Positions 6,580 to 53,606 of a stretch of DNA of 64,000 bases are shown here, in pieces. The notes under the pieces are model-generated. The model was not told where the DNA came from and did no database searches. It saw only the letters and a list, made by a program, of their open reading frames with translations. Source of the stretch: Acidobacteriota bacterium (GTDB taxonomy: Bacteria > Acidobacteriota > Vicinamibacteria > Vicinamibacterales > UBA2999). The stretch is from the NCBI GenBank assembly GCA_030650395.1, contig JAUSDY010000171.1, positions 6,554 to 70,553 of the forward strand, written 5' to 3'. How positions within the stretch are numbered: the first letter of the stretch is position 1; every line of letters starts with the position of its first letter. A program made the position numbers and the translations under genes.

Positions 6580-7648
6580 AACCCTCTGTCTTCAGTCGCC
6601 CTCGCGCCCATGCGACCGCGTCTTCGACTGCCGGGGTGTGCGCGCTGTGGGCCGCATTCCTGATGCCGCGGCCGGGCCGATCGAGCACGGCCGCAAGCGA
6701 GCCGTCGCCGCTGTTGCCAATCACCATCGCAAGGTTTCGCCGGAACCCTGACAGCGTCAGGTGGGTCATGGCGCTGCCGGCCACGAATTGATGGAGCTCG
6801 TTGTCGGTCTGCTGCCACAACGCCGCCGCCGACACGCCGTTGCGCGGCACGGCGTGCCAGGCCGGATCCTCGCTCCGCGGCCCCGCGAGGTTCCAGGGGC
6901 AGACGTCCTGGCAAATGTCGCATCCGTACGCATGGTTGGCGATCTGCGGGCGCTCATCGGGCGCAATCGCGCCGGCCGTCTCGATAGTCAGATACGAGAT
7001 GCACCTGGTAGCGTCGAGCACGTGCGCGTCGACCAGCGCCCCGGTCGGGCAGGCGTCGATGCAGAGCGTGCAGGCGCCGCATTGATCGAGCGACGGCGCA
7101 TCGATGTCGAGCGCGAGATCGGTCGCGATGCCGGCGAGGAACAGAAAGGAGCCCAGCTCGGGATTGATCACGCAAGTGTTCTTGCCGATCCACCCGATGC
7201 CCGCGTGCCGCGCGTACGGGCGTTCCTGCACCTGGTGTTTGTCGACGAAGATGGCCGCGTCAAACGGCTCGGACTGTTGCTCGCGCATCCAGGCGACAAG
7301 CACCTCGAGCCGCTCGCCCAGCACGACGTGATAATCCCGCCCGCGCGCATAGCGGGCAATCTGAACGGGGTCGCTAGGCCCCGTTTTGCCTTCTGCCTTT
7401 TGCCTTATGCCTTCGTCCGTGTTGTAAACCGTCCCCGTCACGATCACCGACCGCGCCGAGGGCAGAAACTTCCGGATGTCAGCGCGAACGTGGGCCGACT
7501 TGTGGAGGTAGATCATCTCGCCGGCGCAGCCGCGGGCGAGCCAGTCCGGCAGGTGCGCCAGCTCCGGCAGCGCCGCCGCGGGAGCAATCCCGCAGACGTC
7601 GAAACCTAACGACCGAGCCTGTTCCTTGATTCCGTCAGCGTGCAACAC
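6578..7648 (-). CDS. queG: tRNA epoxyqueuosine(34) reductase
   Basis: Two 4Fe-4S ferredoxin motifs (CGACTLCIDACP, CDICQDVCPWN) in a QueG-type context, with C-terminal HEAT-like tail. GTG start. Confidence 0.9.
   Translation of the reverse strand: MLHADGIKEQARSLGFDVCGIAPAAALPELAHLPDWLARGCAGEMIYLHKSAHVRADIRKFLPSARSVIVTGTVYNTDEGIRQKAEGKTGPSDPVQIARYARGRDYHVVLGERLEVLVAWMREQQSEPFDAAIFVDKHQVQERPYARHAGIGWIGKNTCVINPELGSFLFLAGIATDLALDIDAPSLDQCGACTLCIDACPTGALVDAHVLDATRCISYLTIETAGAIAPDERPQIANHAYGCDICQDVCPWNLAGPRSEDPAWHAVPRNGVSAAALWQQTDNELHQFVAGSAMTHLTLSGFRRNLAMVIGNSGDGSLAAVLDRPGRGIRNAAHSAHTPAVEDAVAWARGRLKTEG
7388..7415. repeat. GCCTTNT heptamer array inside queG coding sequence
   Basis: gccttct gcctttt gccttat gccttcg, translated on the minus strand as part of EGIRQKAEGKTG. 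It is the same word as the array just downstream of queG (6554-78). Confidence 0.8.
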
Positions 7649-7650
7649 AC

Positions 7651-7737
7651 TTGAAACTTAAAACTGAACTTAAAACTGAACTTCAAACTGAACTTCAAAC
7701 TGAAACTTTCAACTTACAACTTTCAACTTTCAACTTG
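7651..7737. repeat. one-armed tandem-word element (AAACTGAACTTN 12-mers then CTTTCAA heptamers)
   Basis: 4 x aaactgaactt(a/c) followed by ctttcaa units. It equals the right arm of the full palindrome at 46166-46318. It covers the acnA-queG spacer and the last acnA codons. Confidence 0.85.
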
Positions 7738-10482
7738 CTTCACCAACTGTCTCAGCACGTACGGCAGGATGCCGCCGTGTGAGAACGCGGTGAGCTCTTC
7801 CGGCGTGTCGATGCGGGCGAGCGCGGTGAAGGTCTTGACCGAGCCGTCCTCCGCCGTCGCCATCACCGCGATCTCGGCGCGCGCCTTGAGCGACGCACCC
7901 GCGCCGGCAAACGCAAACACCTCGCGGCCGGTGAGGCCGAGCGACGCGGCGCCCTGGCCGTCCTTGAACTGCAGCGGCAGCACGCCCATGTTGACGAGGT
8001 TGCTGCGGTGAATGCGCTCGTAGCTTTCCGCCATCACCACCTTCACGCCGAGCAGCATCGTGCCCTTGGCGGCCCAGTCGCGCGACGAGCCGGAGCCGTA
8101 CTCCTTGCCGGCGATCACCACGAGCGGCACTCCGGCCGACTGATAGCTCATGGCCGCGTCATAGATGGGCATCACGTCGCCGCCCGGAAGATATGCCGTC
8201 ACGCCGCCTTCCACGCCGGGGACCATCTGGTTCTTGATCCGCGTGTTGGCAAAGGTGCCGCGCATCATCACTTCGTGGTTGCCGCGCCGGGCGCCGTAGG
8301 AATTGAAGTCCTTCGGCTCCACGCCGTGCTCGATCAGGTACTTGCCGGCGGGGCTGGCGGCCTTGATGCCGCCGGCCGGCGAGATGTGATCGGTCGTGAT
8401 GCTGTCGCCGAGCAGCGCCAGCGCGCGCGCGCCGCGAATATCCGAGGCCGGCGCCGGCGTCATCGACAGGTTCTCGAGGAACGGCGGTTTGCGAATGTAG
8501 GTCGAGGTGTTGTCCCACGCAAAGCGATCGCCGACAGGCACCGGCAGCGTCTGCCACCGCACGTCGCCGTCGAACACGCTCGCATACTGCTGGCGATACG
8601 CCTCGGACGTGACGGCATGGAGCATCGCCGCCTGGATCTCTTTTTCCGTCGGCCACACATCCTTGAGATACACGGGCTTGCCTTCGATGCCGATGCCGAG
8701 CGGCTCGGTGGTGATGTCGATCGTCATCGATCCCGCCAGCGCATAGGCGACGACCAGCGGCGGTGACGCGAGGTAATTGGCGCGCACTTCCTGCTGGATG
8801 CGGCCTTCGAAGTTGCGGTTACCGCTCAGCACCGATGCCACTACCAGGCCCCGCTCCGCGATTTCAGCCGAGACCTCCTCGGGCAGCGGGCCGCTGTTGC
8901 CGATGCAGGTGGTGCACCCGTAGCCCACCAGATTGAAGCCGATCTGATCGAGATACGTGTCGAGGCCGGCCTTCTTCAAGTAATCGGTCACGACCTTCGA
9001 CCCCGGCGCCAGGCTGGTCTTGACCCACGGCTTGCGCGTCAGCCCGAGCTCGACCGCCTTCTTGGCGACAAGACCCGCGCCGATCATCACGCTCGGATTC
9101 GACGTGTTGGTGCAGCTGGTGATCGCGGCGATCACGACCGAACCATGTTCGAGCTGCGTCGCGGTGGCAACGGCTCCCTGCCCTGACCCTTCGACAGGCT
9201 CAGGGTCACCCCGAGCGGAGCCGAGGGGTGAGCGAGCTTCGGGGTTTTCCCCGAAGCGAGTCGAAGGCACGCCCTTCTTCAAGTCCGCCAGCGCGCCGGC
9301 GAACGATGCCTTGGCCTTGGTCAACGGGACGCGGTCCTGCGGGCGACGCGGGCCCGCGAGACTGGGCACCACGGTTCCGAGATCGAGCTCCACCGATTCG
9401 GTATACACCGCGTCGGGCGACTGGGCCGTCCTGAAGAGGCCCTGCGCCTTCGCGTAGCCTTCCACCAGCGCGATCTGCCGCTCGTCGCGCCCGGTCAGGC
9501 GCAGGTATTCGAGCGTCATGTCGTCGATCGGGAACATCGCGACGGTGGCGCCATACTCGGGGCACATGTTGCCGAGCGTCACGCGGTCGGCAATCGTGAG
9601 ATGCGCGAGGCCAGGCCCGTAGAACTCGACGAACTTTCCCACCACGCCGTGCTTGCGAAGCGCTTCGGTGATCGTCAGCACGAGGTCGGTGGCGGTGGCC
9701 CCTTCGGGCAGCTTACCCGTCAGGCGATAGCCCAGCACCAGAGGAATCAGCATCGAGCTCGGCTGGCCCAGCATCGCCGCTTCGGCCTCGATGCCACCCA
9801 CGCCCCATCCAACGACCCCAAGGCCATTGACCATCGTGGTGTGCGAGTCGGTGCCGAACACCGTGTCGGGATAGGCGACCGCCGTGCCGTTGACTTCGTC
9901 GCGACAGACGACGCGCGCCAGGTATTCGATGTTGACCTGGTGCACGATGCCGGTCTCGGGCGGCACGACGCGAAAGTTGCGGAACCCGGTCTGGCCCCAG
10001 CGCAGGAACACGTAGCGCTCCCGATTGCGGTGGTACTCGAGGCTCGCGTTCAGCTCGAGCGCGTTGCTGGTGCCGAAATGATCGACCTGCACCGAGTGAT
10101 CGATCACGAGCTCGACCGGCTGCAGGGGGTTGACCTTGTGCGGATCGCCGCCGAGGGCGACGATGCCGTCACGCATGGCGGCCAGATCGACCACACAAGG
10201 CACGCCGGTGAAATCCTGCAGCAGGACCCGGGCCGGCATGAACGACATTTCCTTTTCGCCGATCGTCTTCGGATCCCACGACGCCAGCGCCGTGATGTCG
10301 GCGGCTTTCACAAAGCCGTTGTCTTCACGCCGCAACAGGTTCTCGAGCAGGATCTTGAGCGAATACGGCAGCCGCGCCACGCGGGGAAACGCCTGTTCGA
10401 GTGCGGGCAGGCTGTAGATGCTGACGGTGTCGGTGCCGATGGATAACGACGTGCGGGTCTTGAAGCTATCGAGGCTGGACAT
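7723..10482 (-). CDS. acnA: aconitate hydratase A
   Basis: [13 protein letters not shown] and [12 protein letters not shown] Fe-S ligand motifs, full-length aconitase/IRP architecture. ATG 10482 is preceded by AGGAG; the upstream ORF extension to 10566 overlaps the neighbouring gene. Confidence 0.95.
9188..9267. repeat. compound palindromic element inside acnA coding sequence
   Basis: ccttcgacaggctcaggg + tcaccccgagc-gga-gccgaggggtga + gcgagc + ttcgggg-tttt-ccccgaa + gcgagtcgaagg. Translated in frame as ...[23 protein letters not shown]... Confidence 0.8.
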
Positions 10483-10489
10483 GATGGCG

Positions 10490-12783: not shown

Positions 12784-12793
12784 GGGTGTAACA

Positions 12794-21800: not shown

Positions 21801-22790
21801 TCATTGTATCTGGGTCCTCGATAAGACTCTGACCGCCGACCACCCGCCCAGCCCGACGTTCGCGTAGCGATAATCGTTGAGCCAGATGCCCGACGGTTCG
21901 ACGGCGGCAAATGGCAAGCGTGACCAGGCGAGGTAGGCGCGCGCGAGTGGTGTTTGCAACGCGGGTTGAACGGCGGGGTCGTCGAGGTGCGTGTCGATGC
22001 CAAATCCGGATGGTCGAAAGTGCGGCAGCGGTTCGAACCACACGAGGCCTTTTTCGTAGCGGCCGCCGGCGTCGATCACCACTTCCCGTTTGAACGGGTT
22101 CACCAGCACAGGCGTGACCATGAACCGCGTCGACGCGGGACGCCCCGCGCGCACGAGGCCACCTTGCACCTCAGCGCGCGCCAGCAGGTTCGATCCGAGC
22201 ATCACGGCCATGTAGACCGTCGCGATTGCGACGCCGATTCGCGCCGGTTGCGCCGCGTCGGCGTCGCCGCGTTTCTGGCGTCGTGAGGCCAGCCACCATC
22301 CGAAGCCGAGCGCGAGGTACAGCCAGGGATCGACGATGTACAGGGCATCGCCGTAGAACCAGCGGTCCGAAAACGGCATCAACAGCCGCACGCCGTAGCT
22401 GTTGAGGAAGTCCATGAAGACGTGGGCGAGCACGCCGATATACGCCAGCAGCGCAAGCTCGCCAAACTTCGCAGGGGACAGCCCCTGCCCTGAGCGAGCG
22501 ACGTCGCGCGTTTCGCGCGACGTCGAGAGTCGAAGGGTCCGTTGAAGAACAAGGCGGTCGTAGGCAAGCATCACTCCGGTCAACACCAGCGGCAGCACCG
22601 CTTGCGCCAGCACGCCGTGCGTCCAGCCGCGGCGGAACGACATCACCAGTGTGTTGGTCGCGAAGACCGCGACGTCGATGTCGGGCAGGTTGTTGGCGAT
22701 GACGAGCGTGCTCATGCCGAGCGTCGTGCGCCTGGCCAGGCCGGCTTTGCCGAGCGCCGCGCCCATCAGCGAGTGACAGACGTTATCCAC
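21801..22790 (-). CDS. YdjM-like membrane-bound metal-dependent hydrolase (DUF457)
   Basis: MDNVCHSLMGAALGKAGL N-terminus, multiple TM segments, conserved His/Asp (NLPDIDV, WTHG, HVFMDFLN). GTG start. Confidence 0.7.
   Translation of the reverse strand: MDNVCHSLMGAALGKAGLARRTTLGMSTLVIANNLPDIDVAVFATNTLVMSFRRGWTHGVLAQAVLPLVLTGVMLAYDRLVLQRTLRLSTSRETRDVARSGQGLSPAKFGELALLAYIGVLAHVFMDFLNSYGVRLLMPFSDRWFYGDALYIVDPWLYLALGFGWWLASRRQKRGDADAAQPARIGVAIATVYMAVMLGSNLLARAEVQGGLVRAGRPASTRFMVTPVLVNPFKREVVIDAGGRYEKGLVWFEPLPHFRPSGFGIDTHLDDPAVQPALQTPLARAYLAWSRLPFAAVEPSGIWLNDYRYANVGLGGWSAVRVLSRTQIQ
22474..22537. repeat. flank-conserved/variable-stem element inside the YdjM-like CDS
   Basis: ccctgagcgagc + perfect 11-bp hairpin gacgtcgcgcg-ttt-cgcgcgacgtc + gagagtcgaaggg. 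Translated in frame as ...LRLSTSRETRDVARSGQGLSP... Confidence 0.85.
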
Positions 22791-24587: not shown

Positions 24588-25523
24588 ATGACACGAATCC
24601 TTCGACTCGCCCATCGGGCGCGCTTCGCGACGACCCGATGGGCTCGCTCAGGACAGGTCGTTCTCGTGGTCGCGCTGCTGGCCTCAATTACGGCCTGCAG
24701 CAAGGGCGGAACCCCGACCTCACCCACGCCCCCGACACCGGATACACGCACGCAGGCCATTTTTTACACGGCGATCGGCGCCAGCGATGGCCTTGGGGTT
24801 GGCAGTTCCTCGGCTTGCTTTCTGTTCTCAGAATGCCCGGACGGAAAAGGTTACGTTCAGATTCTGCTGGCCCGGCTTCGCGACGGAGGCAGGACCGTCG
24901 GTCACAGCAACCTAAGCATTCCGGGCTCGGTTCTGAGCAAAGCGGTCTTTGACCTGGCCGCGTCGGTGGGGCGGCCTATTGATCAACTGGCCGGTAACTT
25001 CATCGAGCGCGAGGCGCCTTTTGTGCGTCCCGAAACCACGCATGTGACCATTTTCGCGGGCGGTAATGATGCCAACACCATCGCGTTTGCCGCGCGCTCG
25101 CGCGGTGGGTCGGATCCAACGGCGTATGTGAATGATCAAGTTCGTCAGTGGGGCACCGACCTCGAGGATCTGGTCGCCCGTATCCGCAGCCGTGCTCCCA
25201 ACGCGCGCATCGTCGCGCTCAACCTGCCGAACCTGGCGGCGTCGCCGTATCTTGCGGGGAACCCGCCCTCGGAAAAGAGCCTGATGCAGCGCGTCGCGGT
25301 CGGGCTCTCGGATCGCGTGAATGCCCTCACCTCGCGCAATGTGCTCGTCGTCGATCTGATGTGCGACGCGCGCCTCTATCTGTCGTCGAACTACGCCGCC
25401 GACGGCTTCCACCCCAACGACGGCGGCTACGCCGTCTTCGCCGAGCTGGCCTTGCCGGCGTTGCGGGACGGTACGAGCCGAGCGCCGTCAACCACCTGCG
25501 CTCAGCGAACCGTTTTCCCCTAA
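24588..25523 (+). CDS. SGNH/GDSL-family hydrolase lipoprotein
   Basis: Lipobox LLASITAC, block I AIGASDGLG, block III FAGGNDAN, block V DGFHPND. Confidence 0.75.
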   Translation: MTRILRLAHRARFATTRWARSGQVVLVVALLASITACSKGGTPTSPTPPTPDTRTQAIFYTAIGASDGLGVGSSSACFLFSECPDGKGYVQILLARLRDGGRTVGHSNLSIPGSVLSKAVFDLAASVGRPIDQLAGNFIEREAPFVRPETTHVTIFAGGNDANTIAFAARSRGGSDPTAYVNDQVRQWGTDLEDLVARIRSRAPNARIVALNLPNLAASPYLAGNPPSEKSLMQRVAVGLSDRVNALTSRNVLVVDLMCDARLYLSSNYAADGFHPNDGGYAVFAELALPALRDGTSRAPSTTCAQRTVFP

Positions 25524-28073: not shown

Positions 28074-30293
28074 ATGCGCGCCCTGCCCGCCCTTGTCTTC
28101 GTCATCGCGTTTGTGGTCCGGCTTGTCCACATCTGGCAGATCAAGCCGTCGCCGTTTTTTGACGTCCTGCTCGGCGACGCGGGCGGCTACGACGAGTGGG
28201 CGCGGCGGCTGGCGGGCGGCGACTGGATCGGCAGCGACGTGTTCTACCAGGCCCCGCTCTATCCATACTTTCTCGGCGTTCTCTATAAGCTGTTCGGCCA
28301 CGATCTGCTGATCGTCCGCATCTGCCAGGCGGCGATCGGGTCGGCGTCGTGCGCGCTGCTCGCGCTCGCGGGCGGGCGGCTCTTCTCGCCGCGGGTCGGG
28401 CTCATTGCCGGCCTCGCGCTTGCGCTCTACGCGCCGGCGGTGTTCTTCGACGCGCTGCTCCAGAAGTCGGTGCTCGACATGTTCTTCGTCTGCCTCAGCA
28501 TCTGGCTGGTCTCGCGAATTCTTGCTGGCTCGTCGACGCGGGCGTCGTGGATCGCGCTCGGGCTCGCAATGGGTGCCCTCGCGCTCACACGGGAAAACGC
28601 ACTCAGCTTCATTGCGGTGATTGTTGTCTTCGCCGTCGTTCAGAAGGGTTCAGAAGGGTTCAGAGGGGTTCTGAAAGGTTCTGACGGGTTCGGAAAGGTT
28701 CGGAAAGGTTCGAACCCTTCAGAACCCTTCAGAACCCTTCAGAACCATTCAGAACCATTCAGAACCTTTCAGAACCTCGGATGGTTTGTGGTCGGCTTGG
28801 CCGTGGTGTTGCTACCGGTAGCGATCAGGAACTATTCGGTAGGTGGCGGGCTGTATCTAACGACGTCGCAGTTCGGATCGAACTTCTACATCGGCAACCA
28901 TGCCGGAGCCGATGGCACATACGCGTCGATCCGGTTTGGCCGCGGCGCGCCGGAGTTCGAGCGGCAGGATGCGACGGAGGTGGCCGAGCAGGCCGTCGGC
29001 CGCAGCCTCACGCCGTCGGAGGTCTCGGCCTACTGGACCGATCGCGCTCTCCTTTTCATCACGTCACAGCCTGCCGAGTGGATCGCGCTGACCGGACGCA
29101 AGATCAGGCTGCTCGTCAATCGCTCGGAGATGCTCGACACCGAAAGCCAGGAGAGTTACGCCGAGTGGTCGTGGCCGCTGCGGATCGGCGGTTGGATCGG
29201 GCATTTCGGCGTGCTGGTGCCGCTGGCGCTGCTTGGAGTGATGGTGACGTGGCCGGAACGGCGCCGCCTCTGGATCCTCTACGCGATGGCGATCGCCTAC
29301 GCGGCCAGCGTGGTGATGTTCTATGTGTTCGCGCGCTATCGCTATCCGCTGGTGCCATTCCTGCTGTTGTTTGCGGCAGCCGGTGTGGCGTTGCCCTTCG
29401 ACTCAACATTTCGCGAGTACCTCGCGAAATGTTTCGCTCAGGGTTCGCGTCGATGGCAACTGGCGGCAATTTCGATCGCTGTTACCATTTTTGCGAATTG
29501 GCCTGTGTTGTCATCGACGCTCATGATGGCCATCACCGAGAACAATCTCGGCACGGCGTTGCAGGACGCCAAACGCTACGACGAGGCCGTCGTCCATCAC
29601 GAGCGCGCGGTCGCCTTGCAGCCGGATTACGCGCCGGCGTACAACAACCTCGGGGCCGCGCTACGCGCCGCCGGCCGTCTCGACGAAGCGGTCGCGCAGT
29701 ATCAGAAGGCGCTCGCGCTCAAGCCCGACTTCGGCAACGCGAGTTACAACCTCGCCAACGCCCTGCTCGAGCGCGGCCAGGCCGGCGCGTCGGTCGACGA
29801 GTTTCGGAAGGCGATTCAATTGACGCCCGATTCCGTGCAGGCGCACAACAACCTCGGAATCGCGCTGGCGGCCAAAGGCGATGCGGCGGGCGCGATGGCC
29901 GAGTTCCGCGCCGCGATCGCCCTCGACGGCACCTCGGTGCAGGCCCATCGCAATCTCGGCAACATGCTGGTCGACCGCGGCGAGCGGGCCGAGGGCATGG
30001 CTCACCTCGAGCGCGCGGTGCAGGTCGCGCCGGGCGAAGCCGACGCGCTCTTCGACATCGGCAGCATCCTGCTGCAGGAGCAGGATTTCAAGGGCGCCGC
30101 CGGGCGATTTCAGGCGGCGCTGCAAATCAAGCCCGACTCGCCCGAGACGTTGAACAACCTCGGGATCGCGTTCGCCAATCAGGGCAAGATCGCCGACGCC
30201 CTCACCTACTTCGAGCGCGCACTCAGCTTGCGGCCCAACTTCAACGACGCTCGCGTGAATCGTGATCAGGCTCGCGCCGTCCTCAAGAAATAA
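28074..30293 (+). CDS. membrane glycosyltransferase (GT39/PMT-ArnT-like) fused to C-terminal TPR repeats
   Basis: Multi-TM N-terminal half with a typical start (VVRLVHIWQIKPSPFFDVLLGDAGGYDEWA). The C-terminal ~280 aa are consecutive TPR units (YNNLGAALRAAGRLDEAVAQYQKALALKPDF...). Confidence 0.8.
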   Translation: MRALPALVFVIAFVVRLVHIWQIKPSPFFDVLLGDAGGYDEWARRLAGGDWIGSDVFYQAPLYPYFLGVLYKLFGHDLLIVRICQAAIGSASCALLALAGGRLFSPRVGLIAGLALALYAPAVFFDALLQKSVLDMFFVCLSIWLVSRILAGSSTRASWIALGLAMGALALTRENALSFIAVIVVFAVVQKGSEGFRGVLKGSDGFGKVRKGSNPSEPFRTLQNHSEPFRTFQNLGWFVVGLAVVLLPVAIRNYSVGGGLYLTTSQFGSNFYIGNHAGADGTYASIRFGRGAPEFERQDATEVAEQAVGRSLTPSEVSAYWTDRALLFITSQPAEWIALTGRKIRLLVNRSEMLDTESQESYAEWSWPLRIGGWIGHFGVLVPLALLGVMVTWPERRRLWILYAMAIAYAASVVMFYVFARYRYPLVPFLLLFAAAGVALPFDSTFREYLAKCFAQGSRRWQLAAISIAVTIFANWPVLSSTLMMAITENNLGTALQDAKRYDEAVVHHERAVALQPDYAPAYNNLGAALRAAGRLDEAVAQYQKALALKPDFGNASYNLANALLERGQAGASVDEFRKAIQLTPDSVQAHNNLGIALAAKGDAAGAMAEFRAAIALDGTSVQAHRNLGNMLVDRGERAEGMAHLERAVQVAPGEADALFDIGSILLQEQDFKGAAGRFQAALQIKPDSPETLNNLGIAFANQGKIADALTYFERALSLRPNFNDARVNRDQARAVLKK
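28638..28777. repeat. 140-nt composite palindrome of 10-nt words inside the GT39/TPR coding sequence
   Basis: 7 x gttc(a/t/g)ga(a/g/c)(a/g)g, centre ggttcgaacc (28708-17), then 7 x c(c/a/t)ttcagaac. Translated as KGSEGFRGVLKGSDGFGKVRKGSNPSEPFRTLQNHSEPFRTFQN between two TM segments. Confidence 0.9.
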
Positions 30294-37243: not shown

Positions 37244-38581
37244 TTAGCGCGGAAAGCGTCCGAGCGCGACGAGCAATTCCAGGCGCGCTTGCCGCACCGC
37301 ATCCTCGCCCTGCGCGACGATGGTCTCGAGATCGCGCACCGAGCGTTGCGCATCGATCACCTCGATGTTGGTCGTGGACCCGGCATCGAAGGCGATGATC
37401 GTGATCTTCAAGACTTCGTTGGCGTGCTGTGCCGCCTGCCGCGCGCGCACCAGCGCGCGCTCCTGGGCCTCGACCGCCGCGCGCGCGACGCGCACTTCCG
37501 ACCGCGCCCGGATCTGCACCTGCTCCAGTGAGAACGACGACGCCTGCAAGCTCGCCTCGCGCTGGCGCCGCACCGCGCGGCGCGAGCCGGCGTCGTAGAG
37601 CGGCTGCGACACCTGGAACGACAGGCTCCAGCTGCGCGACGGCTGAAAGAGGCCCGACGGCGCGAGCAGCTGCGGGCCGAAGGTGACGGCCGCCGCCGGC
37701 CACCAGTCTTTCGAGCTGTCGTGAACGACCCGATCGCTCGCCTCGCGTTCGGCGGTGAACAGCTGCACGTCGGTTCGACCCGGCATCCATTCAGCCTCGG
37801 CAGTTTCAACCGGCACCTCGAAGGCCGGCTCGCCATTCACATCGACCGGCGCATTCGCGGCCAGCAGAACACCGAGCGCCTCTTGCGCGCGCCTGACGTT
37901 GAGGCGAAAGATTTCGACCAGCGCTTCGTTGCTCGCGAGGATCTGCGCCGACCGCAGCTCGTTCAACCGGCTGCCGACGCCGCCTTCACGCCGCCTGGTG
38001 TTGTAGTCGAGTTGTCCGCGCGCGGTCTGGATCGCGTTCACGCTCACCTCGACCTGCCGCTTCTGCGCGATCACGGCAAGATAGGCTGACGCGGTCGCGA
38101 CCGCGATTTGGCGGCGCGTCTCTGTGGTCGACAGGCGCGCAATCTCGACCTGGTCGAGCGCCTGCGCGCGTGCGGCCCACTGTGCGGCCGCGAGGATGGG
38201 CGCGGTGGCCGAGAGTCCGAACAGGGTCTGGTTCTGCGGCTGCACCGTTTCGCCGCCGAACGAGCGGCCGCTGTCGAGCGTGGTGTTGGTGATGTTGGCG
38301 CCGAGGCGCGGCATCACCGCCGCGCGGACCTGCTGCAGGATGGCTTCGGAGCGCAGGATGTTGGTCGAGGCAATCGCGATCGTCGGGTTCTTCTCCAACG
38401 CGCGCGCGATGGCCTCGTCGAACGTCACGGTTTCCACGGGTACCCCGAGGGCTTGAGGGCTCGAGGGCTTGAGCCTGCCCTGAGCGAAGGTGACTCCGCT
38501 TGCGGAGTCGGCTGAGTCGAAGGGGGCTTGAGAGCCCTGCGCCAACGCAGGCGTGGCGAACGACACCGCCAGCAACAACAT
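37244..38581 (-). CDS. alternative model: separately initiated TolC/OprM-like outer-membrane efflux protein
   Basis: In-frame ATG 38581 (GTG 38584) opens MLLLAVSFATPALAQG..., followed by two OMF repeat halves. This model is nested in the long ORF. Confidence 0.4.
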   Translation of the reverse strand: MLLLAVSFATPALAQGSQAPFDSADSASGVTFAQGRLKPSSPQALGVPVETVTFDEAIARALEKNPTIAIASTNILRSEAILQQVRAAVMPRLGANITNTTLDSGRSFGGETVQPQNQTLFGLSATAPILAAAQWAARAQALDQVEIARLSTTETRRQIAVATASAYLAVIAQKRQVEVSVNAIQTARGQLDYNTRRREGGVGSRLNELRSAQILASNEALVEIFRLNVRRAQEALGVLLAANAPVDVNGEPAFEVPVETAEAEWMPGRTDVQLFTAEREASDRVVHDSSKDWWPAAAVTFGPQLLAPSGLFQPSRSWSLSFQVSQPLYDAGSRRAVRRQREASLQASSFSLEQVQIRARSEVRVARAAVEAQERALVRARQAAQHANEVLKITIIAFDAGSTTNIEVIDAQRSVRDLETIVAQGEDAVRQARLELLVALGRFPR

Positions 38582-45742: not shown

Positions 45743-46186
45743 TGGCGATTGTCCTTCCGCTCTGCGCCGCATACGCGCTGTGGTGCCTGTTCACGATGCC
45801 GGCAGGACCGATCACCACGCCAGACTCGGTGCACTATCTCAATGCCTCGCCGATCGTTCCGCTCGGCTACCCGCTCTTCCTGAACCTCGTCGGCGCGCGC
45901 GGCGCGATGTTCGCGCAGCCGATGCTGTTTGCGGCGGCGCTCGCCGTGCTCGGGCGCGAAACCATTCGCCTTGTGGACGGTCGATCGCCTGCGGCACCCC
46001 GACACCGCTGCCCCGCTCACGCAGTTCATCGCGAGCAATCGGCCGCTGCCGTTCGAAAAGGAGGCGTTCCGCGTCGATCCCGACGTCACGATCGCCTTCA
46101 CCGCCGACGGCTTATGGCCGGCGATCACCACGGCAGCGCTGTATGGTGTCTGGGCGGTTTGGGTTAAGTTGAAAGTTGAAAGTTGA
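45742..46186 (+). pseudogene. frameshifted small membrane-protein gene (possible remnant)
   Basis: ATG 45742 (TGATG overlap with gatA) opens a high-GC3 hydrophobic frame up to about 45955. High GC3 then continues in the +1 frame (KPFALWTVDRL...WAVWVKLKVES, stop 46184-86). The original frame becomes Arg-rich and low-GC3. Confidence 0.4.
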
Positions 46187-46318
46187 AAGTTGAGAGTTTC
46201 AGTTGCCAGTTCAGTTGGAAGTGTGAAGTCTTACGTTCGCGTGGGCGAGTCGAACTTTGAACTCAAAACTGAACTTGAAACTGAAACTTCCAACTTTCAA
46301 CTTTCAACTTTCAACTTG
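46166..46318. repeat. 153-nt tandem-word composite palindrome (GTTGAAA heptamers + AGTTCAGTT words)
   Basis: gttgaaa x3-4 + gagtttcagttgccagttcagttggaagt opposes aactgaacttgaaactgaaacttcc + aactttc x3-4, with a ~40-nt central loop. Confidence 0.9.
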
Positions 46319-46323
46319 ACCGG

Positions 46324-47535
46324 TCACTGAGCGGTCATGTTGGGACGACCCTGTCGGAGAACGTACTTCTGTATTTTCCCGGTGGCGGTCTTCGGTAACT
46401 CCGCGATCGGGGTAAAGCCGTGCGGCACCTTGAAGTGGGCCATGTTCGCCCGGCAAAACTCGCGCAATGCCTCGGCGGTAGCCGACTGGCCGCTCTTGAA
46501 CACCACGAACGCGTGCGGCGCCTCGCCCCATTTGTCGTGGGGCAGCCCGACGACGGCGGCTTCCTGGATGGCGTCGTGGCGAAGCAGCATGGCCTCGACT
46601 TCGACCGATGAAATGTTCTCGCCGCCGCTGATAATCACGTCCTTCAGCCGATCGGTGATCTGGACGTAGCCGTCGGGGTGCACGACCGCGGCATCGCCGG
46701 TGTGAAACCAGCCGTCGCCCATGCATTTCGCGGTGGCCTCGGGGTCGTTGTAGTACCCCGCCATGATGACGTTGCCGCGGGCGATGATTTCTCCCGCGGA
46801 CGTGCCGTCCGCGGGCACCTCTCGGCCGTTTTCGTCCACCACCCGCAGCTCGCCGGAGGTGATGAGCTCGACGCCCTGGCGAGATTTGATGCGGGCGCGG
46901 TCCGACGCGCCGAGCGCGTCGTGTTCGGGCAGCGGCTCGCAGATGCTGATGGCCGGGGCGGTTTCGGTGAGGCCGTAGATCTGCGTCACGGTCCACCCCA
47001 TCTCGCCCTCGATGCGCTCGATCGTCACGGCCGCGGGCGGCGCGCCGGCCGTCATCACGCCCACGCCGCGCGGCAGCCCGGCCTTCACCTCCGCGGGCGC
47101 GCTGGCCAGCATGATCAGCACGGTGGGCGCCGCGCACATCCGTGTGATGCGCTCGTCCTTCACCAGCCGGAACACGGTCGCGGCCTCGAGCTTGGATCCG
47201 GGGCCCCCACCACGCGTACTTTGCGTGGTGGGGTGGAGGCACACGTGCGTCGCGCCGGCGGCCGTCACCGTCCACGTGAACGTCCAGCCGTTGGCGTGGA
47301 ACATCGGCAGCGTCCACAGGTAGCGATCGCGCGGCGTCATCGGCGTGTGCACCAGCATGCCGACGCAGTTCATCCACGCGTTGCGATGCGTGATCATCAC
47401 GCCCTTGGGACGCGACGTGGTGCCGCTGGTGTAGTTGATCGTCAGCAGATCGCGCTCGCCGATCGCGGGCGGCGTGAAGCGCGCCGTCGCCGCGGCGACG
47501 AGCGTTTCGTAATCGAGCCATCCTTCTCTCGACAA
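46324..47535 (-). CDS. acyl-CoA synthetase (AMP-binding enzyme), C-terminal 403-codon fragment
   Basis: Contains INYTSGTTSRPKGVMITH and the remaining AMP-binding/C-terminal domain motifs. Separated from its N-terminal part by an in-frame TGA. The only start available is TTG 47535. Confidence 0.65.
   Translation of the reverse strand: MSREGWLDYETLVAAATARFTPPAIGERDLLTINYTSGTTSRPKGVMITHRNAWMNCVGMLVHTPMTPRDRYLWTLPMFHANGWTFTWTVTAAGATHVCLHPTTQSTRGGGPGSKLEAATVFRLVKDERITRMCAAPTVLIMLASAPAEVKAGLPRGVGVMTAGAPPAAVTIERIEGEMGWTVTQIYGLTETAPAISICEPLPEHDALGASDRARIKSRQGVELITSGELRVVDENGREVPADGTSAGEIIARGNVIMAGYYNDPEATAKCMGDGWFHTGDAAVVHPDGYVQITDRLKDVIISGGENISSVEVEAMLLRHDAIQEAAVVGLPHDKWGEAPHAFVVFKSGQSATAEALREFCRANMAHFKVPHGFTPIAELPKTATGKIQKYVLRQGRPNMTAQ
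47198..47238. repeat. 41-nt CCACCACGCG hairpin element inside the acyl-CoA synthetase fragment
   Basis: ccggggc-ccccaccacgc-gtacttt-gcgtggtgggg-tggag, 39/41 identical to the intergenic copy at 54794-54834. Translated as HPTTQSTRGGGPGS. Confidence 0.9.
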
Positions 47536-47555
47536 ACCTCAAGGTTTGTCGCCAC
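47530..47555 (-). repeat. GTGG-headed stem-loop (REP-like) that interrupts the acyl-CoA synthetase reading frame
   Basis: Minus strand reads gtgg-cgacaaacc-ttga-ggtttgtcg. The loop TGA (47539-41) is the in-frame stop. A 21-nt tandem duplication (47551-71 / 47572-92) is adjacent. Confidence 0.9.
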
Positions 47556-47979
47556 CTCGGTCGAGCGCGACGCCACCTCCGTCGAGCGCGACGAAGTGCG
47601 TGACATCAGGCAGGCTGGCGCGGATGGAATCCACCGCGTCGAGGTAGTCGGCCGACGCGCACACCACCTTCGCGCCGCTGTGTTGGATCAGGTATTTGAA
47701 GTCGTCCGCAATCAACCGGAAGTTGAGCGGCACCAGCACGGCGCCCATCTGGGGCACCGCATAGAACGCCTCGAGCTGCGCGTGCGAGTTCGGCGCGATG
47801 TAAGCGACCCGGTCGCCGGGGCCGACGCCCATTTCGTGCAGGACGCTCGACCACCGATCGCAGCGATCGCCGAACGCCTCGTAGGTCCAGCGCTCCGCGC
47901 CATCAACGACCGCTTCGCGATTGCCGTGAAGCCGCCGCGCACGGCGCATGAATTCCAGTGGGGTCAGCGCCACTTCCAT
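47539..47979 (-). CDS. acyl-CoA synthetase (AMP-binding enzyme), N-terminal 146-codon fragment
   Basis: MEVALTPLEFMRRARRLHGNREAVVDG...VAYIAPNSHAQLEAFYAVPQMGAVLVPLNFRL is a typical N-terminus of medium-chain acyl-CoA ligases. It ends at the TGA in the hairpin loop. Confidence 0.65.
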   Translation of the reverse strand: MEVALTPLEFMRRARRLHGNREAVVDGAERWTYEAFGDRCDRWSSVLHEMGVGPGDRVAYIAPNSHAQLEAFYAVPQMGAVLVPLNFRLIADDFKYLIQHSGAKVVCASADYLDAVDSIRASLPDVTHFVALDGGGVALDRGGDKP

Positions 47980-47997: not shown

Positions 47998-48116
47998 TGA
48001 GTTCAGAGTGCAGCGTTAAGAGTTAAGAGTTAAGAGTTAAGAGTTAAGAGTTAAGAGTTAAGAAAAATGCCTCGAGTTCGGAGTTCTTAACTCTAAACTC
48101 TTAACGCTGAACTCAG
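47998..48116. repeat. tandem-word composite palindrome (7 x GTTAAGA heptamers)
   Basis: tgagttcag(agtgcag)cgttaagag pairs with ctcttaacgctgaactca. The left arm carries 7 GTTAAGA units (48015-63) against about 2 in the right arm. Confidence 0.9.
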
Positions 48117-48457
48117 ACAGCCGCAGGTCGGTGCCGCATCAGCGCCCAGATCATCAGGCCGAGAAGAAGGAACGGGATGGCCGGAACGAGCAGCGCCAGT
48201 AATGCGGCGATCGCGCCGACGACGACCACGGCGGCTACGACGACCAGGAGGATTGGGATGGCGGCAGCGCCCGCAGCGAGGCCGATGGCTCCAAATGTGA
48301 GAGCCACCGGAATCATCAGCACCTTGAACAGGAGGCGGAACGGCAGCAAGACCGTCCAGAACGCCATTCGGATGATGAAGAAGACGAGGCCGATCAGCGA
48401 GAAGAAGGCCAGCCCGGCAGCGGCGAGCAGGCCCGCGAACGCGAGGAATCCGATCAT
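48113..48457 (-). CDS. small integral membrane protein (3-4 TM helices)
   Basis: The ORF is almost entirely hydrophobic (MIGFLAFAGLLAAAGLAFFSLIGLVFFII...). ATG 48457 was chosen because the longer ORF overlaps the upstream gene. Confidence 0.5.
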   Translation of the reverse strand: MIGFLAFAGLLAAAGLAFFSLIGLVFFIIRMAFWTVLLPFRLLFKVLMIPVALTFGAIGLAAGAAAIPILLVVVAAVVVVGAIAALLALLVPAIPFLLLGLMIWALMRHRPAAV

Positions 48458-48900: not shown

Positions 48901-50622
<1,722 letters not shown>

Positions 50623-50665
50623 ATTTTCTGGTCCTCCTGAGGACGGATCGATAGTGCCTATTTTA

Positions 50666-50706
50666 TGAGTGTTTGTAAAGCAATTTATATTAGTTATTAA
50701 CACTCA
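50666..50706. promoter_or_regulatory. inverted repeat in the AT-rich dnaK / hsp20 divergent control region
   Basis: TGAGTGTT-N25-AACACTCA, embedded in the most AT-rich ~60 bp of the window, between divergent heat-shock genes. Confidence 0.35.
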
Positions 50707-50824: not shown

Positions 50825-51292
50825 ATGGCCGCGTTTTCCACGAGCCCGCACGACCTCGATCCCGCTCACCTGGCCCAGGACGTCCACCGGCTGTTTGACG
50901 ATCTCGCCCGCGGGCGTCCAGAGCGGCGGCACGTGGTCGCCGGTGAGTGCATGCCGGTCGTGGACGTGTTCGTTACCGAGCACAGCGTGGAGATCGTGTT
51001 CGATCTCCCCGGGGTGTCGGCCGACGCGCTTCGCATCTTGATCAAGAACGGCGTGGTGCTGGTGGTGGGCGAGAAGGAACGCCCCGAGCCGTCGAAGCGC
51101 GCGCCCGCGAGTTTTCATCTCGTCGAGCGGGACTTCGGGCGCTTCGCCCGAGCCGTGCGCGTGCAGTCGGCGTTCGATGCGTCGGCGGTGCGCGCGCGCC
51201 TGGCCAACGGCGAGCTCCACGTCGTGCTGCCCCGCCTGCAGGAACGACGCGGGCAAGGGATTTTGATTCCTGTTGAAACGCCCGGCGAATGA
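50825..51292 (+). CDS. Hsp20/alpha-crystallin family small heat-shock protein
   Basis: Alpha-crystallin domain (PVVDVFVTEHSVEIVFDLPGV...FGRFARAVRV...ANGELHVVLP). Confidence 0.85.
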   Translation: MAAFSTSPHDLDPAHLAQDVHRLFDDLARGRPERRHVVAGECMPVVDVFVTEHSVEIVFDLPGVSADALRILIKNGVVLVVGEKERPEPSKRAPASFHLVERDFGRFARAVRVQSAFDASAVRARLANGELHVVLPRLQERRGQGILIPVETPGE

Positions 51293-52119
51293 AGCTGCTC
51301 TTCATCGGCGACATCGTCGGTCGCCCGGGCCGTGACCTCGTACGGCGGCATCTCAAGGCACTGGCGTCTTCCCTGGGTGTGGACCTGGTAATTGCCAACG
51401 GCGAGAACGCGGCCGGCGGTGCCGGCATTACGCGCGACAACACCAACGAGATCCTCGCGGCCGGTGTCGACGTGATCACGTCGGGCAATCACGTCTGGGA
51501 CAAGCGGGAAACGCTGGAGTTCATCGGCACGGAGCCTCGCCTGGTCCGGCCGGCCAACTACCCCGCCGGAACCCCGGGCCTCGGCTGTTACGTCGTGACC
51601 ACCCGCACTGGCGTACGGGTCGGCGTGATCAACGTCATGGGCCGCGTGTTTCTACATGCCCTTGACGATCCGTTTCGTGTCGCCGAGCGGGAAATCGAGC
51701 GCGTCCGAAACGAGGGCGCGCAAATCATCTTTGTCGACATCCACGCCGAAACGACGTCCGAGAAAATGGCGCTTGGTTGGTACCTCGATGGCAAGGTCTC
51801 GGCGGTGGTCGGCACGCACACGCACGTGCAGACTGCCGACGAACGGATTCTGCCGGGTGGCACGGCGTATCTGACCGATGTGGGCATGACCGGCCCGCAC
51901 GACGGCGTCATCGGCATGGACCGCACCGCGGTAATCGCCCGTTTCATGTCGGGCCTGCCGGTGCGATTCGAGCCGGCGAGTGGCGATGCGCGTCTCCACG
52001 GCGTCACCATCACGGCGGATCCGGTCACGGGAAGGGCGACTGCGATTGAGCGCGTTGCCCTGACGGAAGAACAACTCAAAGAACTGACAGATCGGGCGTC
52101 CGCGGTTTCAACCGCATGA
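51289..52119 (+). CDS. ymdB: YmdB-family metallophosphoesterase (2',3'-cyclic-nucleotide 2'-phosphodiesterase)
   Basis: MKLLFIGDIVGRPGR, ANGENAAGG and GNHVWDK motifs typical of the TIGR00282/YmdB family. Confidence 0.85.
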   Translation: MKLLFIGDIVGRPGRDLVRRHLKALASSLGVDLVIANGENAAGGAGITRDNTNEILAAGVDVITSGNHVWDKRETLEFIGTEPRLVRPANYPAGTPGLGCYVVTTRTGVRVGVINVMGRVFLHALDDPFRVAEREIERVRNEGAQIIFVDIHAETTSEKMALGWYLDGKVSAVVGTHTHVQTADERILPGGTAYLTDVGMTGPHDGVIGMDRTAVIARFMSGLPVRFEPASGDARLHGVTITADPVTGRATAIERVALTEEQLKELTDRASAVSTA

Positions 52120-53606
52120 GCAAACTCCCCTTCGACGAGGAACCGCCACCAACCAAGGTGCCGAAGGCACCAGCACAGGTGCGTACGGTGCCAGCGGTGC
52201 CTAAGGGGTTGGTGCCTAATGTGCCTATCGTGCCTAAGGTACAGGCGCCGACGGTGCAGGTGCCGGTGCGACAAGTCCTCACAGTCAGCGAGTTGTCAGC
52301 CACGATTCGCGATGCGCTCGAGACGAAGTTTCAGAAGGTCTGGGTCGAGGGCGAGATTTCTAACGCTCGGCTGTGGAATACCGGCCACCTGTATTTCACG
52401 CTGAAAGACAGCGCGTCGCAGATCAAGGGCGTGATGTTCCGCTCGGCGCTGCGCTACCTGAAGTTCAAGCCTGAAGACGGGCTGCACGTCGTGGCGCGCG
52501 GGAAGATCAGCGTCTACGACCCGAAAGGCGAATACCAGATCATCTGCGAGCACCTCGAGCCCAAGGGCTTCGGGCCGCTGCAGCTCGCCTTCGAGCAGCT
52601 CAAGAAAAAGCTTCTGGCCGAGGGGCTGTTCGACGCGGCGCGCAAGCGTGCGCTGCCTGCCCTGCCCAGGCGGATCGGCCTGGTGACCTCGATCGACGGC
52701 GCGGCGCTGCGCGACATGGTGCGCGTGCTGCGCCGCCGTTATCCCAATGCGCATTTGATTATCTCGCCGTCACGCGTCCAGGGTGAAGGCGCGGCCGCCG
52801 AAGTGGTGCGCGCGCTCAAGCTCGTGACGCGCGTGCAGCACGTGGATGTGGTGATCGTCGCCCGCGGCGGCGGCTCGCTCGAAGACCTGTGGGCGTTCAA
52901 CGACGAGGCCCTGGCCCGTGCCATCGCGGCGTCGCCGGTGCCGGTGATCTCGGGCGTCGGCCACGAGACCGACGTCACGATCTGCGATTTCGTTTCCGAC
53001 CTTCGCGCCGCGACACCGTCGGCGGCCGCCGAGCTCGTGGTGCGCAGGAAAGACGAGTTTGTTGCGCAGATCACCCGCACCTGCGGCCAGCTCGATGCCG
53101 CGCTTCGTAATCGCCTCCGCCGGATGGAATCGCGGCTGCATTCGCTCGAAGCGCGGTCGGGGTATGCGGGGTTTGCCGGCCGGCTGGCGTTTCGCGGCCG
53201 CCATACCTCCGAGTTGACCGCGGCGCTGCGTCACGCCGCCGGCCACGAGATCGCCAGGCGATCGCGCCGGCACGAACAGCTGCGCCGCTCGCTCGATCAG
53301 TTCGACCCGCGCCATCGGCTCGGCGCGGTCCGGACGCGGCTGGTGTCGCGCGAAGCGCAGTTGACCGCCGCTGCGCGGCGGCGAATCGGCGTGCTGCAAT
53401 CGCGATTCGGGGGACTGGCCGCGCGAATCGAAGGCCTCAGTCCTCTGGCTGTGCTCGGCCGCGGCTACGCCGTGACCTGGGACGCCGCCCGAACGCGTAT
53501 TATTCGTGACGCAGCCACGGTCAAGCCCGGCGACGATATTCGCGTGACGCTTGAAAAAGGCGTCATCGACGCAACAGTAACGAGAACTCATGGACCCGAC
53601 CATTAA
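52116..53606 (+). CDS. xseA: exodeoxyribonuclease VII large subunit
   Basis: OB-fold N-terminus (LTVSELSATIRDALE...VWVEGEISN) plus the catalytic and coiled C-terminal regions. ATG 52116 overlaps the ymdB stop. An alternative GTG 52266 would exclude the repeat-encoded first 50 codons. Confidence 0.85.
   Translation: MSKLPFDEEPPPTKVPKAPAQVRTVPAVPKGLVPNVPIVPKVQAPTVQVPVRQVLTVSELSATIRDALETKFQKVWVEGEISNARLWNTGHLYFTLKDSASQIKGVMFRSALRYLKFKPEDGLHVVARGKISVYDPKGEYQIICEHLEPKGFGPLQLAFEQLKKKLLAEGLFDAARKRALPALPRRIGLVTSIDGAALRDMVRVLRRRYPNAHLIISPSRVQGEGAAAEVVRALKLVTRVQHVDVVIVARGGGSLEDLWAFNDEALARAIAASPVPVISGVGHETDVTICDFVSDLRAATPSAAAELVVRRKDEFVAQITRTCGQLDAALRNRLRRMESRLHSLEARSGYAGFAGRLAFRGRHTSELTAALRHAAGHEIARRSRRHEQLRRSLDQFDPRHRLGAVRTRLVSREAQLTAAARRRIGVLQSRFGGLAARIEGLSPLAVLGRGYAVTWDAARTRIIRDAATVKPGDDIRVTLEKGVIDATVTRTHGPDH
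52156..52268 (+). repeat. degenerate 9-mer array (GTGCCTNNN) at the 5' end of xseA
   Basis: aaggtgccg aaggcacca ... gcggtgcct aaggggttg gtgcctaat gtgcctatc gtgcctaag ..., the same GGTGCCT word as 41732-94. Would encode KVPKAPAQVRTVPAVPKGLVPNVPIVPKVQAPTVQVPV. Confidence 0.8.

Follow-up and report, generated by a model that had tools for sequence, protein, structure and literature searches.

Palindromic and tandem repeats in the reading frames of conserved genes in a 64-kb stretch of a Vicinamibacterales genome

The 64,000 nucleotides (nt) analyzed here, a stretch of contig JAUSDY010000171.1 (assembly GCA_030650395.1) hereafter called the window, come from a metagenome-assembled genome (MAG) of the Vicinamibacterales, an order of the Acidobacteriota, and carry several families of short self-complementary or tandem repeats that occur both between genes and in the reading frame of conserved genes. 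It is likely that these families were spread by copying, that the copies surviving inside genes were filtered by selection and that they are tolerated as extra peptide in variable loops and linkers. Directly supported by observation are the in-frame location of the repeats, the finding that they are missing or variable in orthologues, the covariation of one class of hairpins and the fact that the elements are not intrinsically biased toward open frames. An earlier reading of the same letters, referred to below as the original prediction, had named eight genes in which palindromic repeat DNA would be tolerated in frame; repeat DNA was found in the true reading frame of all eight, and the segments concerned correspond to extra or hypervariable loops or linkers when set against orthologues.

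The window has a GC content of 65%, and its AcnA, XseA and QueG proteins are nearest to Vicinamibacterales or Acidobacteriota MAG proteins. Pfam matches agree with all eight host gene names of the original prediction. Ten genic sites are considered, in queG, acnA, the YdjM-like gene, GT39 (two sites), the TonB receptor, the outer-membrane factor (OMF), acs (two sites) and xseA; all ten were compared with orthologues, with which the host genes align over their full length at 65-94% identity and look intact. The NCBI annotation, itself a prediction, includes repeat-derived residues in AcnA, the YdjM-like protein, GT39 and MltG.

Repeat families and their sites within genes

Repeats were detected by repeat finding and by Tandem Repeats Finder (TRF), supplemented for one class by a pattern search and a covariance model (CM), and most of them fall into four classes, A to D. 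Class A comprises arrays in which units of 7-10 nt are repeated in tandem; two arrays of opposite orientation often stand together and form a long hairpin. Such arrays fill almost all intergenic spacers of the window, the inverted ones adjoining stop codons, and the tally is ~4 genic and ~20 intergenic. Class B elements are ~50 nt long and consist of CCCTTCGACTC, a variable hairpin (stem 10-15 bp, loop 3-6 nt) and TCGCTCAGGG. The window holds 8-9 copies, 4 of them gene-internal, and the pattern search returned 18 matches vs 0 in a reversed-sequence control; the copies of this genome have only their 21 terminal bases in common, the stems being wholly different. Class C is a 26-nt palindrome, GTGGCGACAAACCTTRAGGTTTGTCG, with the head GTGGCGACAAACC (two genic copies plus one diverged intergenic copy), and class D a 41-nt hairpin with the head CCGGGGCCCCC (one genic and one intergenic copy, in agreement at 39/41 positions); for each of these two classes, two copies were found in the window where none was expected. 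Chance is excluded as the source of the repeats. The RNA fold z-score lies between -2.8 and -10.2 at eight of the ten genic sites, the exceptions being queG (-1.5) and the OMF (-1.9). Rfam at gathering thresholds recognized only a tRNA-Val in the window and no family for the repeats, and a permissive Rfam scan over a class B pair gave chance-level matches only.

The insert of acnA (9188..9267, minus strand) is a class B composite in which a full unit, a 7-bp hairpin and an 'empty' unit in inverted orientation are combined, and it encodes a stretch of 27 residues. Some 26 residues are missing at this position from the closest 120 orthologues and from L001, a syntenic relative with ~90% nucleotide identity to the window; the net gain is 66 nt, with 27 nt replaced relative to L001, which is not a clean insertion. 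The segment folds with a z-score of -4.9, cannot be aligned with human IRP1 (2b3x) and is included in the 919-residue AcnA annotated by NCBI. The same loop bears PST(G/R/F)-type class B footprints in 23/120 orthologues, where they appear as PSTGSGQ or PSTRSGE peptides. The gene for a YdjM-like membrane hydrolase (22474..22537, minus strand) contains a class B copy in sense orientation (22488-22537; CM score 56.9 bits), preceded by a small GGGG-ACAG-CCCC hairpin. Its product has ~15 residues more than the L009, L016 and L012 orthologues, and the Pfam YdjM match spans 205 residues vs 173 profile positions.

Two sites lie in the gene for a GT39 glycosyltransferase with tetratricopeptide repeats (GT39/TPR). 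The first, on the plus strand at 28638..28777, is a 140-nt class A palindrome of 10-nt units, GTTCAGAAGG seven times and then GAACCCTTCA 6.5 times; it encodes 47 residues, has a fold energy of -85.8 kcal/mol (z = -10.2) and is open in one of six frames. This palindrome is confined to the window and missing from 17 orthologues, among which the length of the loop varies, and the loop carries other repeat-derived peptides in L011 and L022. The second site (29394..29443, plus strand), overlooked in the original prediction, is a 50-nt class B copy encoding PFDSTFREYLAKCFAQG. It has a 50-nt counterpart at the orthologous position in seven relatives (L003, L005, L007, L008, L009, L010 and L012), while the position is empty in L002, L004, L006 and L016. 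Repeated independent insertion at this site was rejected, since all eight orthologous copies are exactly 50 nt long vs 47-56 nt in unrelated copies. A third class B site of GT39, at about residue 155 (GARRSPRASALSS...), is occupied in L002 (450-500) and L005 (2887-2937) and not in the window; across the order, this gene has three separate repeat hot spots.

Two further sites follow or form part of signal-peptide regions. In the gene for a TonB-dependent receptor, a class C palindrome, GTGGCGACAAACCTTAAGGTTTGTCG (33328..33360, minus strand), lies in the signal-peptide n-region and accounts for ~10-11 extra residues (GWRQTLRFVG) after a conserved MARR start, by comparison with six orthologues and the neighbouring paralogue; the flanking GTC/GTCGG overlaps with the palindrome. 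In the OMF part of an AcrB-OMF fusion open reading frame (ORF), positions 38445..38537 (minus strand) are occupied by an 8-nt array (GAGGGCTT, 3.4 units) with a nested class B copy in sense orientation (38478-38524; CM 35.1 bits). This repeat sits in a variable linker after a signal-peptide-like segment and the linker amounts to ~35 residues in the window vs 16-20 in L004 and L007. The ORF itself joins an AcrB-type resistance-nodulation-division (RND) transporter to an OEP/TolC-type OMF in 1494 residues (37244-41728, minus strand), the joint being a hydrophobic signal-peptide-like segment ending ALA|Q, and the fusion is stop-free also in L004 (~6476-10925) and L007 (~9656-13829). Signal peptidase may cleave the product as a polyprotein; alternatively, translation of the OMF may start internally.

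The acyl-CoA synthetase gene (acs, minus strand) carries elements of two classes. A 41-nt class D hairpin (47198..47238) encodes HPTTQSTRGGGPG and gives 12-13 residues more than are present in the Thermus thermophilus enzyme (PDB 1ult) and in the intact L114 orthologue. The second element (47530..47593) comprises a class C palindrome (47530-47555) and a 2 x 21-nt tandem duplication, and together they add 14 residues. As had been predicted, this insertion brings a stop: the palindrome centre, CCTTGAGG, contains an in-frame TGA at 47536-47538, by which acs is probably inactivated. Being interrupted, acs is not counted as tolerating its insert; nine of the ten genic sites are open. Selenocysteine incorporation or readthrough at this codon was considered and dismissed, the TGA lying inside the palindrome centre, in a non-conserved loop. 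Neither of the two acs fragments has a protein record. In L114, identical class C ends occur at the same site of acs around a 34-nt centre that leaves the frame open, and because of these shared ends the class C copy is, on the sequence evidence, taken to be old.

The N-terminus of xseA, which the original prediction listed only as a possible case, can now be regarded as definite. The start motif MS(K/R)LPFD(D/E)E is conserved in 100/120 orthologues and the start overlaps the stop of the upstream gene as ATGA; on account of this motif and this overlap, the ATG at 52116, upstream of the array, is assigned as the true start. The array (52156..52268, plus strand) has a 9-nt, GTGCCTAAG-like unit encoding (VPx)n, and is mainly a tandem array and not a palindrome. 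The linker of XseA is 11 to 76 residues long and, in 71/100 orthologues, contains recognizable repeat-derived peptides; an exact look-up of the window XseA found no record with either candidate start. As a side observation, the XseA of this order has a short N-terminal motif (52116-52155) tethered to the OB fold by a hypervariable linker, and this motif resembles an acidic/IPF-type short linear motif like the tail of SSB.

In queG, finally, a class A array (7383..7417, minus strand) occupies a loop of the DUF1730 domain; TRF resolves it into five heptamers, in sense orientation GACGAAG, GCATAAG, GCAAAAG, GCAGAAG and GCAAAAC, which encode DEGIRQKAEGK. The array is non-palindromic and involves no net insertion, the loop being only 3 residues longer than that of Bacillus subtilis QueG (PDB 5d08). 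It occurs across the order, is ancestral, and is identical in L001 though the gene has diverged by ~11%. The palindromic nature initially ascribed to all these repeats is therefore to be restricted: it does not extend to the plain tandem array of queG or to xseA, chiefly a 9-nt tandem array. At all sites the segments proved absent from or variable among orthologues, with queG showing no gain in net length.

Hairpin covariation, array turnover and rival explanations

The class B element of the second GT39 site can be followed through eight genomes, the carriers having GT39 proteins only 61-70% identical to that of the window. Its ends are conserved, and its 13-bp stem, though different in each genome, remains paired: 87.5% of the cells are paired vs 72% in shuffles (0/500 reach the observed value) and 28-51% in slid controls in which the partner was moved by 1-3 columns, and 12/13 apical pairs have changed on both sides. 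The class B covariance model gave ~20 matches at E<0.01 in 427 kb of Vicinamibacterales DNA vs 3 in 1.37 Mb from other phyla, and the matches outside the order at this threshold all lie in one Acidobacteria MAG; weaker matches were obtained in a second Acidobacteriota MAG and in one Gemmatimonadales MAG. Arrays with a period of 7-11 nt are distributed in the same sense, at 1.95 per 10 kb in Vicinamibacterales loci vs 0.36 in a negative control of 80 loci from other phyla, drawn with the PEPCK-like protein (48901-50703), which is too conserved to yield syntenic relatives. Among the loci examined, classes C and D were found in this lineage only. Gene-internal class B copies are sense-oriented at 6/6 independent sites, a weakly significant result (chance ~0.05 allowing for a stop in one antisense frame). 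Units that lack the hairpin, CCTTCGACTC joined directly to GCTCAGGG, occur in acnA, in the queG of L030 and, as peptides, in the 23 AcnA orthologues mentioned above; from their sequence, these 'empty' units are probably deletion footprints.

A further class B copy, missed by the original prediction, spans the ruvX/mltG junction (57533..57582, minus strand) antisense to the genes. One half encodes the RuvX tail LSEDGSA and the other MTSHPSRR, the first eight residues of MltG, while the loop, GCATGA, contains the overlapping TGA stop of ruvX and ATG start of mltG. The NCBI MltG has exactly 352 residues, as predicted from a start in the hairpin loop. An equivalent element is present in L113 (10001-10047) with a compensatory G-C to A-T change, and the hairpin may control translational coupling of the two genes.

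Such observations raise the possibility, which we rate as appreciable though well short of probable, that the elements are nucleic-acid structures kept by selection even inside genes, their coding capacity being incidental; possible roles would be those of mRNA hairpins or single-stranded-DNA structures acting as terminators, stabilizers, translational-coupling or pausing devices or protein-binding sites. The strong covariation at one coding site over eight genomes with such divergent proteins speaks for it, as do the conservation of class B ends across Acidobacteriota classes, the conserved stop and start in the ruvX/mltG loop with its compensatory change, the uniform sense orientation of gene-internal copies, and the arrays found at the same spacer and the same queG codons in five genomes despite differing units. 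However, the structure is dispensable, given that sites are empty in other orthologues (the four GT39 loci named above; acnA in most), and hairpin-less units persist. The repeats match no Rfam family, and the stem mismatches on the sense strand (A.C 16 vs G.T 5) run counter to the expectation for an mRNA-level structure; with few copies, some of them related and not independent, this is a hint only. Moreover, the arms of a palindrome could be corrected with one another as templates, and this would look like compensatory evolution even if there were no function. A broader proposal, which we put forward tentatively and as less probable than not, is that class B is an Acidobacteriota-restricted structured element whose hairpin is actively maintained in coding DNA, by selection or by self-templating repair or replacement; together with 7-10-nt arrays renewed by lineage-specific homogenization of their units, it would form a repeat system that continually makes and reshapes loops, linkers and gene junctions, and the inserts would be more than tolerated junk.

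That most inserts are instead misannotations, in which repeats lie upstream of true starts or between genes, or else native low-complexity linkers, appears improbable. The description is accurate for the repeats at 24598, 44233, 50770 and 54794, which seem to lie in long ORFs and are really upstream of likely starts, and the queG loop shows no net gain over B. subtilis. Another instance is a 66-nt array of 9-nt units (GGCACCTTA) in L001 (6552-6617) and L030 (6934-7000), missing from the window at ~13512: it forms residues 2-23 of a 250-residue protein in the gene call of L001 and is intergenic in that of L030, which shows that arrays mislead start-codon prediction. Against this stand the conserved, Pfam-matched protein on both flanks of the inserts in acnA, the YdjM-like gene, GT39 (both sites), the OMF and acs (both sites), the MARR and MSKLPFDEE starts conserved upstream of the inserts of the TonB receptor and xseA, and the match of insert DNA to intergenic family members at the nucleotide level.

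In queG, the heptamer array begins at one common codon in five genomes and its units differ, being of the GAAGGCA type or GAACCGG (L031) or GATCAGG (L032); L030 has the window-type array with a nested 'empty' class B unit. Among the ~120 orthologues in the matches listed, the loop varies from 14 to 46 residues, with a 7-residue (21-nt) periodicity in most of them and nested REP-like (repetitive extragenic palindromic) inserts in some. To judge by these sequences, the queG array looks like a coding minisatellite evolving in concert under frame constraint. A class A palindrome of AATAACC/GGTTATT units in the spacer of the convergent csoR-like and M49 peptidase genes (4001..4069) behaves similarly, the orthologous spacer containing arrays of a different unit in L030, L031 and L032.

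Units of 7, 8 and 10 nt inside coding sequence could also suggest contingency loci, at which genes are switched on or off as units are gained or lost by strand slippage; a glycosyltransferase (GT39) and an outer-membrane factor, both of them kinds of gene in which phase variation is typical, are among the hosts, and the right arm of the GT39 palindrome consists of units that match at 96%. Phase variation is nevertheless very unlikely here. The arrays are short and their units match imperfectly (85% in queG as well as in the left arm of the GT39 palindrome), queG, xseA and acnA are housekeeping genes, and no frameshifted alleles were seen among the orthologues examined. In addition, the queG array is the same in L001, the only close pair compared, in spite of the divergence of the gene, and among the ~120 orthologues listed the loop changes by whole codons, mostly in 21-nt steps.

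It is scarcely credible that the palindromes are artefacts of MAG assembly or sequencing, even though the window is a MAG contig and the 140-nt GT39 palindrome is known from this single assembly: the YdjM-like and TonB receptor proteins recur with their inserts in independent Logan assemblies (the former identical, the latter as an identical gene call of 982 residues), and L001, L030-L032, L113, L114 and the GT39 loci, all of which derive from other samples, contain members of these families, in part at orthologous sites.

Filtering, spread and comparison with known repeats

Two explanations had been offered for the high proportion of open insertions, purifying filtering and an intrinsic bias of the elements toward open frames. 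Open frames were counted in 36 elements (10 genic, 26 intergenic), six frames each, the expectation being taken from random window segments of equal length. Genic elements have 41/60 frames open vs 42.6 expected, and the elements are therefore without intrinsic open-frame bias. Intergenic elements have 72/156 frames open vs 108.6 expected, a deficit due to the confinement of AT-rich, stop-containing units (GAGTTAA, AATAACC, AAGTTGA) to the spacers; the copies that survive in genes are GC-rich and poor in stops. Only ~10 of the 36 elements are gene-internal although ~88-90% of the window is coding, a distribution that implies strong purifying filtering. The first of the two explanations is thereby retained, with stop-rich arrays found only between genes, and the second is discarded.

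Copies have been gained since the divergence from L001: the acnA insert, an 84-nt array at 7640-7723 that now separates acnA and queG, and the segments 810-997 and 5826-5950. The copy at 7677-7737 is 92% identical to that at 46258-46318, 38 kb away, which argues for copying of an existing array, and the near-identity of the two class D copies points the same way. The inserts are not all recent, as could have been supposed, since the queG array, the GT39 class B copy and the acs class C copy are common to orthologues.

In the scheme that we favour, of spread by copying followed by filtering and tolerance, the usual home of these families would be the spacer just 3' of a stop codon. New copies would arise by copy-and-paste of existing ones, and arrays also by slippage, while the hairpin classes would presumably be moved by a single-strand HUH/RAYT-like activity (RAYT, REP-associated tyrosine transposase). 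Copies would land anywhere, and selection would purge any that bring in a stop codon, disturb the frame or fall in structured protein. Those that survive within genes would have a length divisible by three, be GC-rich and lack stops in the frame used; they would be found only in loops of variable length, in signal-peptide n-regions and in linkers between domains or at the N-terminus, and would be translated as extra peptide. Once fixed, copies would be long-lived: the class B hairpin would be kept paired by compensatory changes as the peptide drifts, and arrays would keep their period as their units change in concert, with frame-preserving steps in length (21 nt in queG, 9 nt in xseA). The mode of spread, the translation and the neutrality of the inserts are what we infer from the observed distribution.

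Several points weigh against this scheme. The data examined, 64 kb of one genome and ~430 kb from relatives, are a limited sample. Neither a transposase, nor a target-site duplication, nor an excision product was found when 18 window ORFs were scanned against Pfam and junctions were compared for acnA and the TonB receptor, and a likeness limited to 21 terminal bases, as in class B, is unusual in a recently active mobile family. The covariation of a hairpin in coding DNA, together with arrays fixed at orthologous positions with changing units, hints at function and not at tolerance alone. The NCBI gene call for the TonB receptor (956 residues) begins downstream of the insert, as the misannotation hypothesis would have it. 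An AlphaFold2 model of AcnA from a 40-sequence alignment had a mean predicted local distance difference test score (pLDDT) of 47.5 and was unusable for judging the exposure of the insert, and the translation of the inserts as extra peptide is a prediction from the sequence.

Palindromic elements in frame in conserved genes are best known from Rickettsia, where Ogata and colleagues reportedly described RPE-1 and related Rickettsia palindromic elements (RPEs) in 2000 and 2002; translation of the RPE-1 insert is said to have been demonstrated. The repeats of the window resemble RPEs in being dispersed and palindromic, in occurring in frame in conserved and apparently functional genes as well as between genes, in forming several families per genome and in adding a peptide where orthologues have none. 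The RPE-like behaviour that had been proposed is accordingly borne out, dispersed families that are also intergenic being present in frame, in conserved genes, at length-variable positions. Unlike RPEs, they belong to a free-living soil acidobacterium of 65% GC and not to the reduced, AT-rich genome of an obligate intracellular bacterium; they are shorter (26-140 nt), one class consists of 7-10-nt tandem arrays, and class B keeps 21 terminal bases around a freely covarying hairpin. Their density also seems high, with 10-11 coding sites in 64 kb. Membership in RPE families at the sequence level is unlikely in view of composition and phylum. RPEs are cited in a survey of another group of palindromes (Di Nocera et al. 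2013; PMC3733652).

The same survey describes GTAG/CGTC REPs that lie inside genes and in frame in Opitutus terrae, Thauera, Xanthomonas and Stenotrophomonas, among others, ascribes the pattern to removal of disruptive insertions and considers N-terminal cases to be often really extragenic (PMC3733652). The original prediction, which was aware of no equivalent in GC-rich genomes, has to be amended on this point, the principle of in-frame REPs in such genomes being already known. GTAG/CGTC REPs are small palindromes (20-40 nt), mostly 3' of genes, often inverted dimers, with a minority in frame in GC-rich free-living bacteria, all of which recalls the elements described here, and the Vicinamibacterales do not occur in the passages of the survey that were consulted (PMC3733652). 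A REP-like arrangement is indeed present in the class B inverted pair at 60753/60825 and in three -/+ pairs in L048. In contrast with these REPs, however, the heads of classes A-D, as read from the sequence, have neither the GTAG nor the CGTC tetranucleotide and class B stems are wholly different within one genome. No RAYT (Y1 HUH transposase) was recognized among the 18 window ORFs scanned against Pfam.

Heptanucleotide arrays bring to mind the short tandemly repeated repetitive (STRR) sequences that Mazel and co-workers are said to have reported from cyanobacteria in 1990. In both cases several types of heptanucleotide unit are each dispersed over many, mostly intergenic, loci: 38 period-7 arrays were counted in 391 kb of Vicinamibacterales DNA, with AACTCTT and AACCAAT recurring at 3 loci each and AAGCCCTC at 4. 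The present arrays differ in phylum and in units, none of which equals an STRR unit such as CCCCAGT, and periods of 8, 9 and 10 nt occur too. Unlike STRR, they are usually inverted pairs that form long hairpins right after stops, some lie in coding sequence with predicted translation, and the unit at orthologous positions differs between genomes. The term STRR is attested in PMC2670836. Bacterial miniature inverted-repeat transposable elements (MITEs) such as Nezha, Correia/NEMIS and the enterobacterial small mobile sequences sometimes contribute an ORF to host genes (Delihas 2007-2011; PMC3184786) and are likewise small, non-autonomous, self-complementary repeats that add reading frame, but the elements of the window are far shorter, and no terminal inverted repeats matching an insertion sequence (IS), target-site duplication or partner transposase was identified for them.

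A literature search brought up no account of such repeats in the Vicinamibacterales, nor of the class B architecture or of palindromes built from arrays, a search for Vicinamibacter or Luteitalea repeats gave nothing relevant, and the class B end sequences matched only unrelated primers in full-text literature. The elements themselves, namely class B, which in this sample is restricted to Acidobacteriota, and the 7-10-nt arrays with genome-specific units at the same codons, appear to be new. They extend the in-frame repeat colonization of conserved genes, first noticed in Rickettsia, to abundant and poorly studied soil bacteria, and offer a natural experiment on which protein positions accept 4-47 residues more (the AcnA and QueG loops, signal-peptide n-regions, the XseA tether). 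They also affect the annotation of Acidobacteriota MAGs, in the choice of start codons and in calls of pseudogenes and fused genes. A covarying hairpin in coding sequence and the concerted turnover of units at fixed codons, moreover, provide testable cases in which DNA or RNA structure within genes would be the target of selection or repair.

Gene junctions, spacers and neighbouring elements

Outside genes, class B forms the inverted pair already mentioned (60753-60804, plus strand; 60825-60874, minus strand) directly after a tRNA-Val gene; the first copy starts exactly at the CCA end of tRNA-Val(GAC) (60679-60804). Class B ends (TTCGACTC and GCTCAGGG) are faintly like the B-box and A-box of tRNAs, a resemblance too short to indicate a tRNA-derived origin. 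Another class B copy (24598..24653, plus strand) lies antisense in the 5' untranslated region of the second AMP-binding gene, upstream of its start. The intergenic class D copy (54794..54834, plus strand) is found upstream of the tlyA/ftsJ-like gene. Two further class A palindromes are intergenic: one of AAGTTGA/AACTTTC heptamers (46162..46321), of one family with 7649-7737, lies directly downstream of the acs stop, and the other, of GAGTTAA heptamers (47999..48125), has units that contain stops and is open in none of six frames. A diverged class C-like palindrome (GGACCAACCTGAAGGTTTGTCC, 16188-16209) takes up the 15 nt that separate lpxB from the peptidase gene upstream.

A further REP-like family is represented by an inverted pair of 85% complementarity at 1250-1289 and 44233-44287, one copy being at or near the N-terminus of a P-type ATPase and the other between gatC and gatA. 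It encodes peptides of the 'SAKATADK' and 'SASAAEG...SPKLA...SEGG' types, such as fill the XseA and QueG loops of many orthologues. The only classical REP-type element of the window is a GTAG-headed dimer (GTAGCGCGGAACTTTAGTTCCGCG ... GCGGACCTAAAGGTCCGCTCTAC) between convergent genes at 37159-37234. Three genes end within array units, from which their final 4-9 codons and stop codon are derived: the gene for a membrane-fusion protein (41733-41792, APQAPKAP*), that for the TlyA/FtsJ-like methyltransferase (55603-55635, LRVQS*) and acnA (7723-7737, QVES*).

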